This document shows positions 1,944-18,975 of a DNA stretch of 64,000 nt, piece after piece. This DNA comes from Thermoanaerobaculia bacterium (GTDB lineage: Bacteria; Acidobacteriota; Thermoanaerobaculia; UBA5066). The stretch is from positions 320,001 to 384,000 of the forward strand of contig CAWFJJ010000024.1 of the NCBI GenBank assembly GCA_963816185.1. The letters are read 5' to 3'. A program made the position numbers and the translations under genes. Position 1 is the stretch's first letter; the number at the start of each line of letters is the position of its first letter. The notes below the pieces were generated by a model, which worked only from the letters and a program-made list of their open reading frames with translations, ran no database searches and was not told the origin of the DNA.

Positions 1944-4580
1944 GTGAGCCCGGAGATCTCAGGCGCGAGTTCCGACGATTCCGGTCCCGTCCGCTCGGGT
2001 GATGCCCCGGCCCTTCGGGATGCCGGCACCTGGAACCCGCGGCGCTCGCTCGTGGCGCGGCTGCTCTGGTACGTCGTCCCGGTCGCGCTCGTTCCGGCGG
2101 CCGTGTACTGGGTCATCGTCGACCGCATCGCCGCTGCGCAGCAGGAGAGCCTGCTCCAGACTCTCATCACCGACGCGCGCCGCCACGAGGCCCGGACGCT
2201 CTCCGAAGATGCGGCCGACCGCGTCCGGGCGATCACGAACGCGGCCGGCGAGGTGATCACGATCGTCCGCCGGGCCGCCGAAGAGTCGCGGCGAGCGCTG
2301 GCGGAGGGGCCGGACCCGACGCTTCCGGCGGAAACGCTCGTCGACGAGCCCGGCGGCTTGCTCCGCACACCGGGAAACGGCGTGAGCGCCGCGATCGTAA
2401 GCCGTGAGCGCGGGCTCGTCCCCGAGGCGCGGCGGGACCTCGCCGCGACGCGCCGCCTCGAGGCCCCGTTCGTCGTCCTCGGACTCGGCCCCGTGGACCT
2501 GTCGGCCCTCGCGATCCGGACCGCTTCCGGCGTTCTTCGCATCGTGCCCGGTCTCGACGTGAAACCGGGCGGAAAGGCGATCGTAGACCCGCGGTTCCAC
2601 TTCCCGAGCAACTCGGCCGTCCCGCTCGCCGACGGGACCGGCGGAGCCGGATCGCCTCCCGTCGTCTGGACCTCCGTGTACGAAGACACGTATGCCGGAA
2701 ACGGGAAAATCGTGTCGGCCGTGGCTCTCGTGAAGGGAACGAACGGCCGGCTGCTCGGAGAGGTCGGCGTGGACTGGGTCTTCCCGCGGATGTTTCAGGG
2801 ATCGCAGGACCCGACACGGCCCGACGACGTCGAATTGGTATTCGCGGCGGACGGACGTGCGGTCGTCGTCGCGCCGGGGAACCGGTTCCCCGCCGAGCAG
2901 ATTCGAGAGCTCGGCGCGCTCGCGGCGGGGTGGGGAACCGAAACGTTCGAGACGAAGGTCGGCGAGCAGACATTCCTGGTGGCCGCGCGTCACGTGCCCG
3001 ACCTCGGATGGACGTACGCGAAGATCACGCCGCGAGCCGCCGTCGAGAAGAAAGTCGCGGACCAGCTTCTTCCCATCTTCGCCGAGTCGCTCCGCAAGCG
3101 CAACGAAGTGCGCCTCCTCTACGTCGCCCTCGTCGGGCTGTTCGCCGCGGCCGTCGTCGTGGCGACGCGCCGGGCCCTCGCGCCCCTGCGCCGCGTGGCG
3201 CGCGCCGCCGATGCGGTCGCCGTCGGACGGCCGTCGCCTCATCTCGCAGAGAGCGGCCAGCTCGACGAGGTCGGCCGTCTTTCCCGGGCCGTGACGGACC
3301 TCGATCGACGCGTGCGCTGGCGGATCGCTTCCATGGAGGGCGTTCACCGACTCGCGCAGGCGGCCGCCCTCATGACGCGTCCGGAGGAGACGTTCCAACA
3401 GCTCACGCGGCAGATCGCGGCACTCGTCGGCGCCACGAAGGCCTGGATCTGCCTCTGGGAGCCCGAGACCCGCTCCCTCGTGCTGACGCCGCCGGGCTTC
3501 GGAGTGCCCGACGAAGCCCTCCGCGGCCGGCACGTCGGCCTGAACGAACCGAGCCTCGCGATCCTCTGCTACCGGACCGGCGAGACGTGCCTGCAGAACG
3601 ACGTGGCGTCCGACCCGAGGATCTCGAAGAAGATCCTCGAGGCGCTCGGCGTCCAGAAGAACATCGTCTTCGCATCGCTCAAGGCCGAGGTCGGGATCCT
3701 CGGGGTCCTCGCGGTGGCCGACAAGCCCGGCGGCTTCGACGCGGAGGACCAATCGGCGATCGACGGATATGCCGGCGAAGCCGCGCTGCTCCTCCGAAAC
3801 GCGCGCCTTTACGAAGAGCTGCAGCGCAGCTACGAAAGGCTCAGGGACGCTCAGCGCAACCGTGATTACTTTCTCCAGAACATCAACCACGAGCTCCGGA
3901 CGCCTCTCACGGCCATTCTCGGGTGGAGCGAGGTCCTCGCGGAGGACCGGCCTGACCGGGAGACCATGCGGATCGCCGTGGACCAGATCAACCGGTCGAC
4001 CCAGTTTCTTCTCGCGCTCATCTCCGATCTCCTCGACCTGTCGCGCTTCGAGGAGGGCCGGACGCGCCTCGAGCCGGAGGAAGTGGACCTCGGCCCGCTC
4101 GTGACGGACTCCGTCGAGCCCGTCTCCGTCATGGCCGAGGCCAAGGGCATCCGGATGACGCTCGCCGTGCCTCCTCGAAAGACGTTCGTTCGCCTCGACC
4201 CGCTTCGTGTCCGCCAGGTGCTGTGGAATCTCGTACACAACGCCGTGAAATTCACGCCGAAAGGCGGCGAAATCCGCGTCGAGGCCGGAGCCGACGAACG
4301 CGGCGTCACGTTCTCGATCGCCGACAACGGCGTCGGCATCGACGCGAAGGACCTGCCCCTCATCTTCGAGCGCTTCCGGCAGATCGACGGATCTTCGACG
4401 CGCGCCTACCGCGGCATGGGCATCGGGCTCGCGCTCGCGAAGGCCTTCGTCGAGCTGCACGGCGGGACGATCCGGGTGGACAGCCAGCCCGGCCAGGGCA
4501 CGACGTTCCGCATCCGCCTGCCGCGGATCGCGAGCGGCGCCACGGCGGCGGCGGAGCCCCTTCAGGGGACGCTGCTCTGA
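1944..4580 (+). CDS. Membrane sensor histidine kinase (periplasmic sensor, HAMP, GAF, HisKA, HATPase)
   Basis: Two TM segments, HAMP DEVGRL, H-box NHELRTPL, N-box NLVHNAVKFT, G-boxes DNGVGI and GMGIGL. Confidence 0.88.
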   Translation: MSPEISGASSDDSGPVRSGDAPALRDAGTWNPRRSLVARLLWYVVPVALVPAAVYWVIVDRIAAAQQESLLQTLITDARRHEARTLSEDAADRVRAITNAAGEVITIVRRAAEESRRALAEGPDPTLPAETLVDEPGGLLRTPGNGVSAAIVSRERGLVPEARRDLAATRRLEAPFVVLGLGPVDLSALAIRTASGVLRIVPGLDVKPGGKAIVDPRFHFPSNSAVPLADGTGGAGSPPVVWTSVYEDTYAGNGKIVSAVALVKGTNGRLLGEVGVDWVFPRMFQGSQDPTRPDDVELVFAADGRAVVVAPGNRFPAEQIRELGALAAGWGTETFETKVGEQTFLVAARHVPDLGWTYAKITPRAAVEKKVADQLLPIFAESLRKRNEVRLLYVALVGLFAAAVVVATRRALAPLRRVARAADAVAVGRPSPHLAESGQLDEVGRLSRAVTDLDRRVRWRIASMEGVHRLAQAAALMTRPEETFQQLTRQIAALVGATKAWICLWEPETRSLVLTPPGFGVPDEALRGRHVGLNEPSLAILCYRTGETCLQNDVASDPRISKKILEALGVQKNIVFASLKAEVGILGVLAVADKPGGFDAEDQSAIDGYAGEAALLLRNARLYEELQRSYERLRDAQRNRDYFLQNINHELRTPLTAILGWSEVLAEDRPDRETMRIAVDQINRSTQFLLALISDLLDLSRFEEGRTRLEPEEVDLGPLVTDSVEPVSVMAEAKGIRMTLAVPPRKTFVRLDPLRVRQVLWNLVHNAVKFTPKGGEIRVEAGADERGVTFSIADNGVGIDAKDLPLIFERFRQIDGSSTRAYRGMGIGLALAKAFVELHGGTIRVDSQPGQGTTFRIRLPRIASGATAAAEPLQGTLL

Positions 4581-13975: not shown

Positions 13976-15375
13976 ACGGTCGGGCACATAGGTAACACTT
14001 TAGTCCAGGCACATGGGTAACACTTATCAACAGTTACCTCGTCGTCGTCGTGCTGTGGAGATCGTGGAAATCTTCTTGCGTAGAGCTCTCAGCCCCGCGC
14101 CCAGTGCGGCCGCCGCGATGCCAAGGCCGGTGTTCATAGAAGGCTGCATAGAGTTTCTTGTCGCGCTCGTCGAAGCGCCCCAGCAGTAGCGAACCGAAGT
14201 ACAGGTTCCAGATGCCGTCGTCGACCTCCTCGAGCCCGACGTACTCGTCGATCAGGGGGTGGCTGACGCTGAGCCAGCCCGTCTTCCAGCGGATCCCGCC
14301 GTTGCGGCTGACGCGCCTGACCTCGAAGTGGCCCGGGTACTCGATGGGTGCGAGCTTGGACGGGAACGTGCGCAGTGAAGGACGGTAAAGATCGGCGGGC
14401 CGTTTCATGCCGATGCTTTCGTGGGGCCGCTCGGTGTTGAACTCCAGCTGGAAGGCGTCGAAGCGTTTCTGCTGGCCTCTGAGGTCGCGCCCCACGGGGT
14501 GAGTCGTCGCCCGCTTGAGCGTGCGATGCATCCTCTCGTGCGAGCCGTTCTGCTCGGGGTGGGCCGGCTGCGTGAGCTCGGGCCTGATTCCCAGCTTGAT
14601 CCACCACACCGAGAGGCGCGAGAGCCGCCCCAGGCCCGTCGACGCAAACGGAACCCCGTTGTCGCTTCGGATCGCATCGGGCAATCCATGTTCGCGAAAC
14701 AGCCGTTCGAAGCTTTTCTTCACGCCGTCCGCCTTCGTCGAGAGCAGCCCTCTGCACCCGATGAGGTATCGGCTATAGAGGTCGCTCACCGTCAGCGGGT
14801 AGCAGTAGATCCCGTCGCCCGTCAGGAACTCGCCCTTGAAGTCCGTGGCCCACAGCGCATTCGCCTTCTCAGCCACCGTCATCGGACGTCCCGGATGCCC
14901 GACGGGCCGTCTGCGGCGCCGCGCCTTCACGAGCCCGTGTCTCTTGAGAATCGCCGCCACCGTGCTTCGTGCCGGCCAGCTCGTCTCCTGGTCGCGCGTC
15001 GCCAGCACGTGGACGATCTTCTTCGGGCCCCAGTCGGGGTGTTTGCGTCGAAACTCAGTGATGGCCGACTCGACATCCCCAGCGGTCTGATTCGGGTGCC
15101 AGTGCGGCCGGCGCACCTGGTCCTCGAGCCCTGCCACACCTTCCGCCTCGAATCTCTCGATCCACTTGTAGAGCGTCTTGCGGCTCACGCCGTGCCGCTC
15201 GGCCAGAAACCTCACCGTGAAAAGCCCGCTTCGATAATCCACCAGGCTCTGCATCCTCTCGGCCACGGGTGTCGTCTCCTTCCAGGGCATCGGGCGTTTC
15301 TCCTCCCGCCCGAACTCTGCCCTGTGTCACCCATGTGCCTGGACCGTTCTGTAACCCATGTGCCCGGACTGAACC
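13973..15375 (-). mobile_element. IS481-family insertion sequence
   Basis: Two tandem GGCACAT(A/G)GGTAACA sites at 13983-14022, two inverted copies at 15325-15344 and 15350-15369; flanking GGC at 13970-13972 and 15376-15378; exact ends uncertain by a few bases. Confidence 0.82.
14034..15290 (-). CDS. IS481-family DDE transposase
   Basis: MPWKE start, HTH (GVSRKTLYKW), integrase core WATDFKG, IRSDNG, QNGSHERMHRTLK. Confidence 0.92.
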   Translation of the reverse strand: MPWKETTPVAERMQSLVDYRSGLFTVRFLAERHGVSRKTLYKWIERFEAEGVAGLEDQVRRPHWHPNQTAGDVESAITEFRRKHPDWGPKKIVHVLATRDQETSWPARSTVAAILKRHGLVKARRRRRPVGHPGRPMTVAEKANALWATDFKGEFLTGDGIYCYPLTVSDLYSRYLIGCRGLLSTKADGVKKSFERLFREHGLPDAIRSDNGVPFASTGLGRLSRLSVWWIKLGIRPELTQPAHPEQNGSHERMHRTLKRATTHPVGRDLRGQQKRFDAFQLEFNTERPHESIGMKRPADLYRPSLRTFPSKLAPIEYPGHFEVRRVSRNGGIRWKTGWLSVSHPLIDEYVGLEEVDDGIWNLYFGSLLLGRFDERDKKLYAAFYEHRPWHRGGRTGRGAESSTQEDFHDLHSTTTTR

Positions 15376-15426
15376 GGCAGCGCAGCCTAACAACGCGCTG
15401 CAGCGGACTTCCATGAGAAGGCCGGT

Positions 15427-15707
15427 TGTTGTCAAGAGAGGGCGGAATCGCCGGTGGGAATCCCTGGGCTCGAGTGTGTCGCCGCGCTTCCATTCGCACT
15501 CGTATGGGCCGCGTCTTGTCGGCCTGGTGCATGAGGGGGTCTAGTCCGCAAGGGCGCTGCAATCTCGCTACCGGTGTTCCGCCCCGGGCCGAAGTCCGTG
15601 GGGACCGGAGTCCGCTGCGCAGTCGCCCTGACGGGGCGTTGACTCGAATTTGGGATAGCCACGATTGAACGCGTCCTCTCGCTGGTTCCTTTCTTTTTTG
15701 CCCTGTG
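15427..15707 (-). ncRNA. Predicted bridge/seek RNA of IS110 element A (boundaries approximate)
   Basis: Stem 15551-15560/15619-15629 encloses an internal loop with attC-matching segments (15608-15618, 15564-15571) around an inner hairpin with a minus-strand C-UUCG-G loop (15589-15594). Confidence 0.72.
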
Positions 15708-16874
15708 TCAGGCCGCTGCGGCCGTGCCGTGAGGCGCAGGGGCCTTGCGTAGCGGCTCGTAGACCTCCGCGGTCCGCCACAGCCGATGCAGCAACACCGC
15801 GAGTTTTCGTGCGATGGCAATGACCGCCCGTTTCTTCGCATTGCGCTCTCCTCGGGCTGACAGCGCCAGGCCGGATCGTCTGAGGTCGCAGTCCGGCCCG
15901 AATGGCCCGAGGACGTACTGCGCCGACTGAACCAGAAGCCGGCGCAGGAAGTGGTCCCCCTCTTTCGTGATGCGCAGCTGCGGGTCCGAATCACCGCTCT
16001 GACTTCGCGAAGGTACGAGCCCAAGGTACGCCCCGACGGCCCGGCTCTTCCGGAATCGACCCGGATCCTCCAGCGTCAGGACGTAGGCCAGCGCCACGAT
16101 CGGGCCCACTCCTCCCACCTGCCTCAGCAACGCCGTCTCCGGGTACTTCTTCTTCCCCAGTTCTAAGATGCGCTTGTCGAGCGCCAGGATCTGTCTGGAC
16201 ACGACTTCGATCGTCGTCAGGACGTTCGACAACGCTTCGCGTACCTCCTCGGGAATCTCGCCCACCGCCTGGATGGAGAACGTCCGGGTCGAGCACTTCC
16301 TCAGGCGGTGTCCCGTCGCTTTGACCGCCCCGCGGACGTGGTTGACGAGCTGCGTCCGCGTCCTCACCAGCACATCGCGCGAGCGCAGGACGGCCATGTC
16401 CTGTGCGACGCTCTCGGGACGGTGCTCCACGGGGTACAGAAGCTTCGGGTCCAGCCGGGCGATCCGGGCCAGGGCCTCGGCATCCACACGGTCCTGCTTC
16501 CCACGGTTCTGGTAGATCAGCCGGGTCTTTCGGGGGTTGGCCACCAGCACCTCGTGCCCTAGCTCTTTCAGAAGGCGGCTCACCCACGGGGAATGCGTTC
16601 CCACCTCCAGCGCGATTCGCATTCCCACCGGCCCTTCGAAACGCTTCCGGATCCCTTCCAGAGTCGTCTGGGCCCTTCCACGCTCGACGACCATCCCATC
16701 TTCATCGAGCACGCAAAAATGGCTCGTCCGATCCCCCAGGTCTATTCCGACGGTCCACGTCGGACAAAAAGCCGGAAGGACGTTCACCACTTTGCCCGAC
16801 GTCAATCTCGCCGTCCCATCACTCCTCGTCGCCGTCCTCTCGCTCCCGCTCGTCCCGGTGCTACGCTTCCTCAC
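15708..16874 (-). CDS. IS110-family recombinase/transposase A
   Basis: DEDD RuvC-like motifs VGIDLG, ALEVG, KQDRVDA; C-terminal GVGP and YLGLVPSRSQSG; GTG at 16874 follows an AAGGGAG RBS. Confidence 0.93.
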   Translation of the reverse strand: MRKRSTGTSGSERTATRSDGTARLTSGKVVNVLPAFCPTWTVGIDLGDRTSHFCVLDEDGMVVERGRAQTTLEGIRKRFEGPVGMRIALEVGTHSPWVSRLLKELGHEVLVANPRKTRLIYQNRGKQDRVDAEALARIARLDPKLLYPVEHRPESVAQDMAVLRSRDVLVRTRTQLVNHVRGAVKATGHRLRKCSTRTFSIQAVGEIPEEVREALSNVLTTIEVVSRQILALDKRILELGKKKYPETALLRQVGGVGPIVALAYVLTLEDPGRFRKSRAVGAYLGLVPSRSQSGDSDPQLRITKEGDHFLRRLLVQSAQYVLGPFGPDCDLRRSGLALSARGERNAKKRAVIAIARKLAVLLHRLWRTAEVYEPLRKAPAPHGTAAAA

Positions 16875-16997
16875 GGCCGGTCTCCCTTCTGGGCCTCGAG
16901 CCCGCAATGTCCTTGCAGCGAATTTTCCGACTGCGCCGGGGAGACCGGCCTTCTCATCCCATCTCGCTACGCTCGCCGCTGAGCTTGCCCATGAAGA

Positions 16998-17204
16998 TTC
17001 CTGTCAAGCCCCTCGCTGAATAATTTCTTGCTTGCGCCGCACGAAACAGCCGGCCACTCGTCCATTCGGGGTCAGAGCCCCACGTATCACTTCAGCGGAT
17101 GGCGCCCCAAACGATATCCCGGGCTCTGCGGCCCAATGCTCAGCAGCAGGGTCATCCACCCGATTCTCGGCAAGATTTGCGGCGTGCTTTTCCTTTCTTC
17201 GTCT
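16998..17204 (-). ncRNA. Predicted bridge/seek RNA of IS110 element B (boundaries approximate)
   Basis: Target-matching GCTCAGC (17138-17144) and CGATATC (17112-17118) flank hairpin GGGC/GCCC (17121-17134) inside outer stem GGATGGC/GTCATCC (17097-17103/17151-17157). Confidence 0.62.
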
Positions 17205-18308
17205 TCAGCGGCTCTTTGCCGCTTGAGGTTTCAGTCGATAGATCCGGGCATCCTTTACCGCCGTGCGCGGCTCGTGGGCTTTCAGCATCGATCGATCAAA
17301 GCTCGTCTTGTCTCGAAGCATCGCGTAAAGAACCCGACAGAGACGATGCGCCACGGCGGTGACAGCGCGGCGTGTCCCCAGGCGCAACGTGAGAGTTCTC
17401 AGAAACGGATTCAGTGGGCTGCTTTGCCGCCTGGCCGTGTGAGCCGCCTGCACGAGCATGGCCCGCAGCTCGGGCGAACCCGTCCTGGTGATGTGGCCCT
17501 GGCGGTTCGTTTCGCCCGACTGGTAGGTTTGCGGGACGAGCCCCGCGTAGCTCGCCGCATGCTTGGCGGTCGGAAAGCGCGTGGCGTCTGAGAAGACAGC
17601 GATTGCCGTCAGCGCCACGATCTCCCCGACTCCTGGAACGGTTTTGAGTCTCTCGAGGTCTTCGCCGAAGGCGGCGTGCTGGCTTTCGAGGCTCTTCTCG
17701 CACGCGTTCTTCTGCTCGAGGGCAGTCTGCCAGGCGCGGTGGTGAAGCTCGACGTAGCTCCTTACCTGCGGATGTGGAACCAGGGCCCCAAGAAGGCGCT
17801 GCCACGCGCGAAGGGTCCCGAGATGCTGGCGGCTGAGCTCGGAGAGCCCCGCGCTCCGGAGCATCTTTTTCGCCGCGTTGATCTGCGCCGTCCCGAGACG
17901 CACGAAATGGCGGCGCCTCGAGAGGGTATTTCTAAGGTGCTCGATCTTCTCCGGCGGCACATGCACGATCGACCGGTAGATTCCACGCCGCAGGCCTTCG
18001 CACAGTTCAACGGCGTCTCTCGTGTCGCTTTTCTGCCGGGGCCGATGGGCTTTGATCCTGACCTCTCGCGCATCCACCACGACGGGTGAAAGCCCCAGCT
18101 CACTGAGCTTTCGCGCCGCAAAAAACGCCATCGTCCCCGATTCGAGAGCCACCAGCGTCGAGGCGCGAAGCTTGAAACGTAGCCGCAACGAGGAAAACCC
18201 TTCCACAGAGGTCGGCACCTCGCCTCGTCCCAGCTCCTCTCCCCGCTCGTTCTGAATCATGAAAACGCTCGACTTGCTGTGAACGTCCAGTCCCACATAA
18301 GATTTCAT
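17205..18308 (-). CDS. IS110-family recombinase/transposase B
   Basis: YVGLDVH, ALESG, KSDTRDA, TVPGVG, YAGLVPQTYQSG; RBS GGAGG before ATG 18308. Confidence 0.93.
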   Translation of the reverse strand: MKSYVGLDVHSKSSVFMIQNERGEELGRGEVPTSVEGFSSLRLRFKLRASTLVALESGTMAFFAARKLSELGLSPVVVDAREVRIKAHRPRQKSDTRDAVELCEGLRRGIYRSIVHVPPEKIEHLRNTLSRRRHFVRLGTAQINAAKKMLRSAGLSELSRQHLGTLRAWQRLLGALVPHPQVRSYVELHHRAWQTALEQKNACEKSLESQHAAFGEDLERLKTVPGVGEIVALTAIAVFSDATRFPTAKHAASYAGLVPQTYQSGETNRQGHITRTGSPELRAMLVQAAHTARRQSSPLNPFLRTLTLRLGTRRAVTAVAHRLCRVLYAMLRDKTSFDRSMLKAHEPRTAVKDARIYRLKPQAAKSR

Positions 18309-18470
18309 CGGGCTGTCCTCCCTTGCTTGGGGCACCTCCTCGGAGGTTGACCCCGTTAAACTTGTGGCCCGATTCTTCGGTGACCACGTCGGCGAGGACA
18401 GCCCTTTTCTCGTCTTCATTGAAACGATATCGTTAGACGCCGGAAGGTAAAGCAGAGCTAGAATCTCCTC

Positions 18471-18692
18471 ATGTCGCTCGAACTGACCGCCGTCTTTCAG
18501 CAGGTGCCTGAAGGCTTCATCGCCTTTATCGAGGAGCTTCCGGGTGCGAACTCGCAGGGAGCCACGCTCGAGGAGGCCCGTTCAAACCTGCACGAGGCGG
18601 TAACGCTGGTTCTCGAGGCTAATCGCGCCCTCAGCGAGCAGGCGCTCGCGAACGCCTCGGTCATTAGGGAGCGTTTCAAGATCTCGGCGTGA
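18471..18692 (+). CDS. hicB: HicB-family antitoxin (short form, no obvious DNA-binding domain)
   Basis: GFIAFIEELPGANSQGATLEEARSNLHEAV. Confidence 0.88.
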   Translation: MSLELTAVFQQVPEGFIAFIEELPGANSQGATLEEARSNLHEAVTLVLEANRALSEQALANASVIRERFKISA

Positions 18693-18880
18693 AGCGCGCC
18701 GAGCTCATTCGTCACCTCGAACGCCATGGCTGCCAGCTCCTTCGCGAAGGCGGCTCGCATACCGTGTACGTCAATCGGCCCGAGCGCAAGGTATCTACCA
18801 TTCCCCGGCATCGCGAGCTCAACGAATTCCTTGCCGTCAAGATCTGCAAGGACCTCGGCGTCCCGAAGCCCGGCGTCTAA
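18689..18880 (+). CDS. hicA: HicA-family mRNA interferase toxin
   Basis: MKRAELIRHLERHGC..REGGSHTVY..IPRHRE; GTGA overlap with hicB; TAA stop lies in the attC2 R'' box. Confidence 0.9.
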   Translation: MKRAELIRHLERHGCQLLREGGSHTVYVNRPERKVSTIPRHRELNEFLAVKICKDLGVPKPGV

Positions 18881-18918
18881 CAACGCGCTGCAGCGGACTC
18901 GTCGTCAGTCGCTGCGCT
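18875..18918 (+). other. attC site 2, left half only (truncated)
   Basis: GTCTAAC AACGC GCTGCAGC GGACTCG matches the attC1 left arm; GTCTAAC complements core GTTAGAC at 18432; no L'/R' arm follows. Confidence 0.75.
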
Positions 18919-18975
18919 TAACTCGCTGCAATCTCTCTCCCAGGATCGCTCAAACCCAGATGGAGGTCGAAGACC

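Follow-up and report, generated by a model that had tools for sequence, protein, structure and literature searches.

Sites of the attC type run from RYYYAAC through an imperfect palindrome to GTTRRRY, span 55-140 bp and follow the open reading frames of cassettes in arrays. One set of insertion sequences found in such sites, the IS1111-attC subgroup, reportedly goes back to Tetu & Holmes 2008. In the excerpted text of PMC3001079, this subgroup (ISPa21, ISPst6) is defined as a monophyletic set of transposases, and its elements insert near the attC 5' end, antisense to the cassette array. The excerpts of Siddiquee et al. 2024 (PMC11187229) present ISKpn4, ISPst6 and, as a prediction, ISPa25 as attC-targeting IS1111-family elements with a seekRNA. 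The same excerpts describe junction promoters for IS1111 elements, and give the family subterminal inverted repeats of ~11-13 bp that are extended by 7 (or 6) bp at the left end and by 3 bp at the right end. In the excerpted part of Durrant et al. 2024 (PMC11208160), bridge RNAs are predicted in 93% of IS1111 elements.

We analysed a 64,000-nt stretch of DNA (hereafter the window; G000:C24:320001-384000 in its own genome) that holds an insertion sequence, element A. We put the probability at roughly 0.88 that element A is an IS1111-type, RNA-guided insertion sequence integrated in an attC-like site, and that the non-coding region downstream of its transposase gene (tnp) gives rise to a bridge (seek) RNA. 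Element A resembles ISKpn4 and ISPst6, as the excerpts of PMC11187229 describe them, in having a DEDD transposase gene followed by a non-coding region that gives, or here would give, a short RNA; in two RNA stretches that match the two target strands, the complement of the top strand coming first; and in an attC target and subterminal inverted repeats with 7-bp and 3-bp extensions. The seekRNAs reported in those excerpts (82-86 nt) are comparable in length to the target-binding stem-loop of element A (77 nt; 15552-15628). We draw this likeness from the published description. Unlike these two elements of Gammaproteobacteria, element A comes from an uncultured, Thermoanaerobaculia-like member of the Acidobacteriota and is known from sequence alone. 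With the IS1111-attC subgroup, as excerpted in PMC3001079, it shares the insertion position and the antisense orientation. Since attC-targeting IS1111 elements with a seekRNA are already published, element A is a further instance of a mechanism known in print since 2024. It leaves the understanding of how such elements work unchanged. With it, the range of attC-targeting IS1111 elements comes to include Acidobacteriota and attC clusters in which no integrase was detected.

IS621 offers a second comparison (Durrant et al. 2024, PMC11208160, as excerpted; structures 8wt6 and others). Like element A, it has an internal loop with two guides for opposite strands, both covering a 2-nt core, and a separate donor-recognising part. 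On the window + strand the layout of element A is that of IS621: the longer 5' guide has the sequence of the left target with CT, and the 3' guide is complementary to CT and the right target. Unlike in IS621, where it is found at the left end, the RNA gene of element A follows tnp at the right end, and seen from tnp the guides come in the opposite order and the core is reversed (AG). As the order flips with the reading strand, this reversal amounts to an insertion of the element into its target in the opposite orientation. Element A further differs from IS621 in its donor side, which is not a symmetrical loop and for which only a right-end guide is established, in its long subterminal repeats and in its distant protein match. 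The initial annotation of the window had recognised the layout of IS110 bridge RNAs in this region. The region does behave as a bridge or seek RNA in its covariation, but the order of the guides is that of IS1111 elements in tnp orientation and that of IS621 only on the window + strand.

Element A and its attC-like insertion site

An unoccupied copy of the target in the same genome (C25:611875-611991, found by flank match) delimits element A. Here the two flank matches adjoin (C25:611875-611932 and 611931-611991) and overlap by 2 nt, which sets the bounds given in Table 1, with CT on each side. The empty target reads ...GCAGCGGA-CT-CGCTAC..., within which the 16-nt target site is GCAGCGGACTCGCTAC. 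The sole difference between the occupied and the empty site is element A plus one extra CT, without a long target duplication. The ends, AG/ATGGGATGAGAAGG ... CCTTCTCATGGA/AG, are conserved in homologues, and the extensions beyond the subterminal repeats (3 bp on the right, 5+2 bp on the left) fit the 7/3 bp rule in the excerpts of PMC11187229. Near the right end, the TTGACA box likely represents, by analogy, the -35 half of a promoter that would be completed only upon joining of the ends.

We assign element A to the IS110 family, IS1111 group, from its sequence. Its open reading frame matches DEDD_Tnp_IS110 (PF01548, 7.8e-20) and Transposase_20 (PF02371, 1.9e-18), both exceeding the cut-offs of the domain search, and the true start may lie later than the TTG of the longest frame. 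The protein is a distant match to the transposases of IS621 (E 1.4e-6) and ISCro4. The alignment to the IS621 transposase, which we read against what we take to be its catalytic D-E-D-D and serine residues, retains LEvGT/IEaTGT, KqDrvDA/KTDTVDA and the ...SG serine motif; GIDLGD corresponds to residues 54-59 of the element A protein. The non-coding sequence measures 298 nt downstream of tnp (15410-15707) versus 55 nt upstream of the longest frame. The placement of the RNA gene downstream of tnp and the subterminal repeats make the element IS1111-type. In all, the features of membership in the IS1111 group that we found are the domains, the catalytic motifs, the repeats, the downstream non-coding region and the site- and orientation-specific insertion.

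Table 1. Features of element A and of its insertion site, in window coordinates
Feature	Position	Strand	Remarks
Element A, IS1111-type insertion sequence	15410..16962	-	1553 bp; 1555 bp with one core copy counted at the left end
Transposase/recombinase gene, element A	15708..16907	-	longest ORF 399 aa from TTG
Conserved RNA scaffold	15475..15645	-	target-binding stem-loop, linker, donor-side hairpin; alignment A1
Outer stem P1, 5' strand	15619..15628	-	pairs with 15552-15560
5' target guide GCAGCGGACUC	15608..15618	-	complementary to core + right flank (tnp-sense top strand), extended by 1 nt
Inner hairpin P2	15572..15607	-	stem 15604-15607 / 15572-15575; variable top, UUCG in this lineage
3' target guide GUAGCGAG	15564..15571	-	identical to tnp-sense left flank + core
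Outer stem P1, 3' strand	15552..15560	-	fold and covariation
Donor-side hairpin	15496..15530	-	P3 15526-15530 / 15496-15501 around P4 15521-15524 / 15507-15510
Donor guide AUGGAAG	15487..15493	-	equals last 5 nt of right end + core
Tentative closing stem P0, 3' strand	15480..15483	-	pairs with 15635-15638
TTGACA box	15430..15435	-	25-26 nt from right end; TTGAC at that distance in 24/24 elements
Right subterminal inverted repeat	15413..15426	.	3 bp from IS end; 14 nt, 100% complementary to 16944-16957
Left subterminal inverted repeat	16944..16957	.	5 bp from IS end, 7 bp including core
Core dinucleotide CT (AG in tnp orientation), right-end junction	15408..15409	.	2-nt flank overlap in empty site
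Core dinucleotide CT (AG in tnp orientation), left-end junction	16963..16964	.	sequence and empty site
Interrupted attC-like site, 5' part	15387..15409	+	GCCTAAC box 15387-15393
Same attC-like site, middle part	16963..16987	+	between element A and element B

The initial annotation had named attC as the target, and the flanks of element A do form an attC-like site: the GCCTAAC box is followed by GCGCTGCAGCGGACT, element A, CGCTACGCTCGCCGCTGAGCTTG, a second insertion sequence (element B) and ATATCGTTAGAC. Element A lies near the attC 5' end, 23 nt after the start of the box and antisense to the cassettes; the attC and a hicBA gene pair read on the + strand and tnp on the - strand. Judged by the attC consensus, the genome holds further sites such as GCCTAAC-N8-GCAGCGGACT...CCGCTGAGC-N8-GTTAGGC, which are clustered on contigs C24, C25, C2 and C29. 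There are 28 copies of GCAGCGGACT in the genome, two of which lie in the RNA genes of element A and its copy on C7; 11 of the 28 have a RYYYAAC box at most 25 nt upstream, and many end in GTTRRRY. The central palindrome of attC folds, and thermodynamic folds of the attC sites were no better than those of shuffles. A search of the genome (94.9% complete) found no integron integrase above the cut-off, the best match to TIGR02249 scoring 74 bits versus 265, so that the sites look like attC clusters without a detected integrase.

A side observation concerns the left end upstream of tnp. The stretch 16913-16948 is 75-81% complementary to both strands of the RNA outer stem (15543-15562 and 15605-15625), which may reflect chance or a regulatory pairing. 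More distant homologues carry a hairpin of other sequence at this place.

The RNA scaffold and its guides

Relatives of element A were drawn from a scan of species genomes (6 loci from Thermoanaerobaculia and other Acidobacteriota MAGs) and from 401 genomes of the phylum, 66 of which had a match at E <=1e-20. We aligned the RNA region of 24 elements (alignment A1, 24 rows). The resulting structure of 26 pairs is 89.4% paired, versus 29-43% when one strand is slid. Compensatory changes on both sides were found in 15 of the 26 pairs, and none of 500 shuffles reached any of five measures. The initial annotation had drawn an internal loop closed by a stem; both are present in the minimum-free-energy fold, and the stem (15552-15560 / 15619-15628) is the best helix of the alignment, with 97.7% of cells paired and both-side changes in 6 of 9 pairs. 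An inner hairpin is also present as described, but its UUCG is confined to this lineage and the hairpin varies freely in homologues; its stem (P2, helix 3) is 82.3% paired, with compensatory change in 2 pairs. In the donor-side hairpin, helix 4 is nearly invariant (98.3% paired) and helix 5 presents compensatory changes in all 4 of its pairs. The closing stem P0 (helix 1) is 77.1% paired, with compensatory change in 2 pairs, and we regard it as weakly supported because the alignment is shifted in three homologues (L041-L043).

All the strings on which the initial annotation had based its proposal of guides were read at the positions that it gave. Window positions 15608-15618 read GAGTCCGCTGC, corresponding to GCAGCGGACUC in minus-strand RNA, which equals the left flank of the target plus the CT core plus 1 nt. 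Positions 15564-15571 read CTCGCTAC, or GUAGCGAG as RNA, which is complementary to the core plus the right flank. This match runs 2 nt into the IS end, with ATCTCGCTAC at both 15562-15571 and 16961-16970. Finally, CTTCCAT occurs at 15487-15493 and also at the junction 15408-15414. Whereas the 5' target guide is complementary to the top strand in tnp orientation (Table 1), the 3' target guide would pair with the bottom strand.

How far could such matches arise by chance? Of 5000 shuffled versions of the 298-nt region (dinucleotide shuffles), 44 contained a complement match of >=10 nt, 446 an identity match of >=8 nt and 13 both kinds. The observation in this single sequence is thus unusual (~0.3%), neither overwhelming nor decisive. 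These counts leave some room for a reading in which the region is a structured 3' untranslated region or a protein-binding end, whose flank matches are due to chance in G+C-rich sequence. The same reading would fit the ordinary fold energy of the region, which is no better than that of shuffles (z -0.15 and -1.04), and the result of the Rfam search, which returned nothing in the window at gathering score and nothing in 15380-15740 at E up to 10. A scan of 15300-17100 found no sigma-70-like promoter and no intrinsic terminator. What makes the observation firm is the comparative evidence, namely the conserved structure and the covariation of target guides and donor guide with the DNA.

For the 5' guide, the 14 nt (plus 3 scaffold nt) that follow the conserved ACUGCG were set against the core and right flank, reverse-complemented, in 20 non-redundant elements, and we scored the longest exact match to the element's own flank. 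The cognate matches were 10, 6, 5, 10, 10, 8, 10, 9, 8, 4, 7, 6, 5, 9, 4, 9, 4, 8, 9 and 4 nt. Their sum of 145 compares with a mean of 79 and a maximum of 117 among permuted pairings, and none of 100,000 permutations scored as high. Matches of >=7 nt were found in 12 of 20 cognate pairs versus 5 of 380 non-cognate pairs, which averaged 3.8 nt. For the 3' guide, the six positions 5' of the core were compared with the left flank in fixed register in 17 elements. Here the cognate matches (of 6) were 6, 5, 5, 5, 3, 3, 4, 3, 5, 5, 5, 5, 6, 4, 6, 5 and 4, and the non-cognate average was 1.65; the cognate sum of 79 was again reached by none of 100,000 permutations (mean 31, maximum 60).

The two sets were defined as follows. 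Both leave out near-identical relatives of element A (L018, L019, L020, L023 and L025), L033, which is the same as L021, and L031, from an unpublished genome; the claims are independent of the unpublished genomes G152 and G024. L038 was excluded from the 5' set, its right flank being a copy of its own RNA region, and L039 and L044-L046 from the 3' set, their left flank being missing. L022 and L047-L053 (30-37% aa identity) lack the scaffold motifs or lay outside the closer analysis.

The fit is imperfect in several elements. The contiguous match of the 5' guide is only 4-6 nt in 8 of 20 (L021, L026, L035, L037, L039, L041, L043 and L046), with just 4 nt in L035, L041, L043 and L046, and the 3' guide matches only 3 of 6 positions in 3 of 17 (L028, L029 and L032). 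In L021 and L036 the 5' guide requires a 1-nt bulge beside the core, in L027 and L034 it has AC in place of the expected core complement CU, and in L043 it matches a site 9 nt farther along. The homologue L040 has the core AA rather than AG at both junctions, and its RNA follows at three places that all fit an AA core: the 5' guide ends in ..CUU, the 3' guide ends in ..UAA and the donor guide is AUAGAAA. Across orthologues, two predicted target guides for opposite strands, overlapping at the core, covary with the target. Both the permutation result for each guide and the threefold change in L040 argue against chance matches in an untranslated region, and we consider that reading highly improbable.

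A further reading is that the matches are captured or left-over attC DNA within the element, for example from an imprecise excision, which would act, if at all, as DNA. No motif of the attC-like sites in this genome is more conserved than GCAGCGGACTC, which has 28 occurrences, 11 of them with a RYYYAAC box just upstream; a copied fragment would therefore look alike. Against this, the two halves in element A are oppositely oriented with a hairpin between them, unlike any attC, and homologues share the scaffold and differ at both places, each matching its own non-attC flanks. The covariation of guides and flanks thus largely refutes captured attC DNA, to which we give hardly any credence. Guides that follow the target remain our preferred reading.

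CTTCCAT had been proposed as a possible donor guide, and this proposal is borne out: in 22 of 24 elements, the 7-mer behind the conserved GUGCGN repeats the last five bases of that element's right end together with the core. Its states are ATGGAAG (16), ATAGAAG (5) and ATAGAAA (1), and in L029 and L037 the 7-mer is off by one position. As the left end is still ATGG in elements of the ATAGA group, it is the right end that the motif tracks. The helices, both target guides and the donor guide all covary in this comparison of homologues, a check that the initial annotation had called for.

The best candidate for a left-end donor guide is the linker consensus CCCA, for which compensation is seen in L026, L030, L039 and L043. 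At least four homologues (L018, L029, L034 and L041) lack compensation, and the motif is absent in element A, which reads CCCCCUC. Two other candidates for this role were ruled out: CCCAU at ~15505-15509 is part of a variable, non-conserved hairpin, and CUCAU at 15531-15535 varies while the left end is constant.

Next to the 3' guide, the conserved AU(U/G) at 15561-15563 corresponds, in nearly all homologues, to the bases with which the left end begins (AT[G]), so that the 3' guide plus these bases spell the product junction. A handshake-like contact has been described for IS621, and AU(U/G) may correspond to such a contact or merely to scaffold.

Proposed mechanism and mobility

The comparison of sequences establishes where the junctions lie, that the RNA structure is conserved and that three guides covary with the target and donor DNA. 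Published relatives are the model for the production of the RNA, its binding by the recombinase and the activity of this copy, and for the steps proposed here. By analogy with IS1111 and IS110 elements, element A would excise as a circle with its ends joined through the core, the junction reading ...CTCATGGA-AG-ATGGGATG.... Across this junction the TTGACA box would face a -10-like GAAGAU, and transcription from the joined-end promoter would probably read through tnp into the RNA region. The RNA would then be trimmed and bound by the recombinase. The 5' side of the loop, GCAGCGGACUC, would pair with one target strand to the right of the crossover and the 3' side, GUAGCGAG, with the other strand to its left, both covering the 2-nt core (CT on the window + strand). 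In the excised circle, single-stranded AUGGAAG would pair with the core and the right end of the element itself, and the DEDD/Ser recombinase would exchange strands at the core.

It is also possible that the element is RNA-guided as proposed but survives here as a fossil copy, whose guides record a past insertion and which is immobile in this genome. The genome holds one intact copy of element A, one broken copy and two short end fragments, and two perfect and six one-mismatch target sites are empty; in contrast, element B has six full copies in the same kind of site. The broken copy (L002, G000:C7:292-1863) is 99% identical to element A and likewise sits in an attC-like site, at the same insertion position and in the same orientation. 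Its reading frame is broken into three pieces, and its last right-end bases and flank are replaced. Conversely, the 399-codon frame of element A is open with its catalytic motifs aligned, the ends, the repeats and all conserved RNA positions are intact, and the near identity of the two copies also speaks against a fossil. We consider a fossil unlikely, though clearly less so than chance matches or captured DNA.

The initial annotation suggested that the recombinase could be reprogrammed. Experimental reprogramming has been published for other members of IS1111/IS110, and natural reprogramming is visible among the relatives of element A, which may itself prove reprogrammable. These ~20 related elements, with one scaffold, one pair of ends and differing guides that each fit their own insertion site, form a clean natural series. 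A series of this kind reveals the RNA positions that tolerate variation, knowledge that is required for retargeting such recombinases.

Relatives, element B and neighbouring genes

Close relatives of element A (80-87% aa; L018, L019, L020 and L023, in four other genomes) share the attC position and orientation, and their guides are unchanged. Relatives at 47-60% aa keep the ends, the TTGAC box and the RNA scaffold, and their flanks differ. Contexts resembling attC were found only in the lineage of element A and perhaps in L026. On plasmids, the best 5000 records of PLSDB included no relative with >=60% aa identity, those listed reaching 31-35%, and a plasmid DNA search with the sequence of element A gave no match.

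As the nearest relatives of element A (47-60% aa) are mostly in non-attC targets, attC targeting may have arisen separately by a change of guides. We tentatively suggest, at somewhat less than even odds, that attC targeting arose by guide change in a clade whose other members share the RNA scaffold and the ends and aim at unrelated repeats, independently of the gammaproteobacterial IS1111-attC subgroup; that the unrelated elements A and B converged on different halves of one attC family in a genome lacking a detected integron integrase; and that the A-type RNA carries three guides, leaving the left end to repeat and protein.

Element B, a second IS110-family element (16988-18426; tnp 17205-18419 on the minus strand), is 29% aa identical to element A. 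Within the attC-like site that it shares with element A, it separates the L' arm from the GTTAGAC box, and its six full genome copies are all at GAGCTTG/.../ATATCGTTAG. Its downstream non-coding region presents GCUGAGC, the complement of the right flank, then a short hairpin and GAUAUCGUUU, which equals the left flank running into the element's own left end. This guide-like region suggests that element B is RNA-guided too; its junctions read CG and CA where a common core would be expected. Two apparently RNA-guided elements thus split one recombination site, which probably makes its cassettes immobile.

Fragments resembling the left end of element A lie beside attC sequence at G000:C24:735360-735491 and C2:10049-10190, one of them adjoining a full copy of element B. 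In the homologue L038 (G266:C38), a copy of this element's RNA region takes the place of target DNA beyond the right end, suggestive of a second copy, tandem or partial. The homologue L035 (G352:C1) measures 1989 bp, with ~450 extra bases between the RNA region and the right end (oriented positions ~2880-3340). These bases contain what looks like an open reading frame and may represent a passenger gene in an IS1111-type element.

Directly upstream of the interrupted attC lies an IS481-type transposase gene (14034-15290, minus strand; HTH_32, rve and LZ_Tnp_IS481), so that three mobile elements adjoin between NADH dehydrogenase genes and the hicBA cassette. The hicB-hicA pair (18471-18880) matches HicA_toxin over the cut-off and a HicB-like family under it, and is followed by an intact attC-like site, the stop codon of hicA lying within the GTCTAAC box. 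This site (window 18471-18925 with the gene pair) carries the target of the 5' guide, GCAGCGGACTC, and differs in its right half, which reads CGTCGTC.
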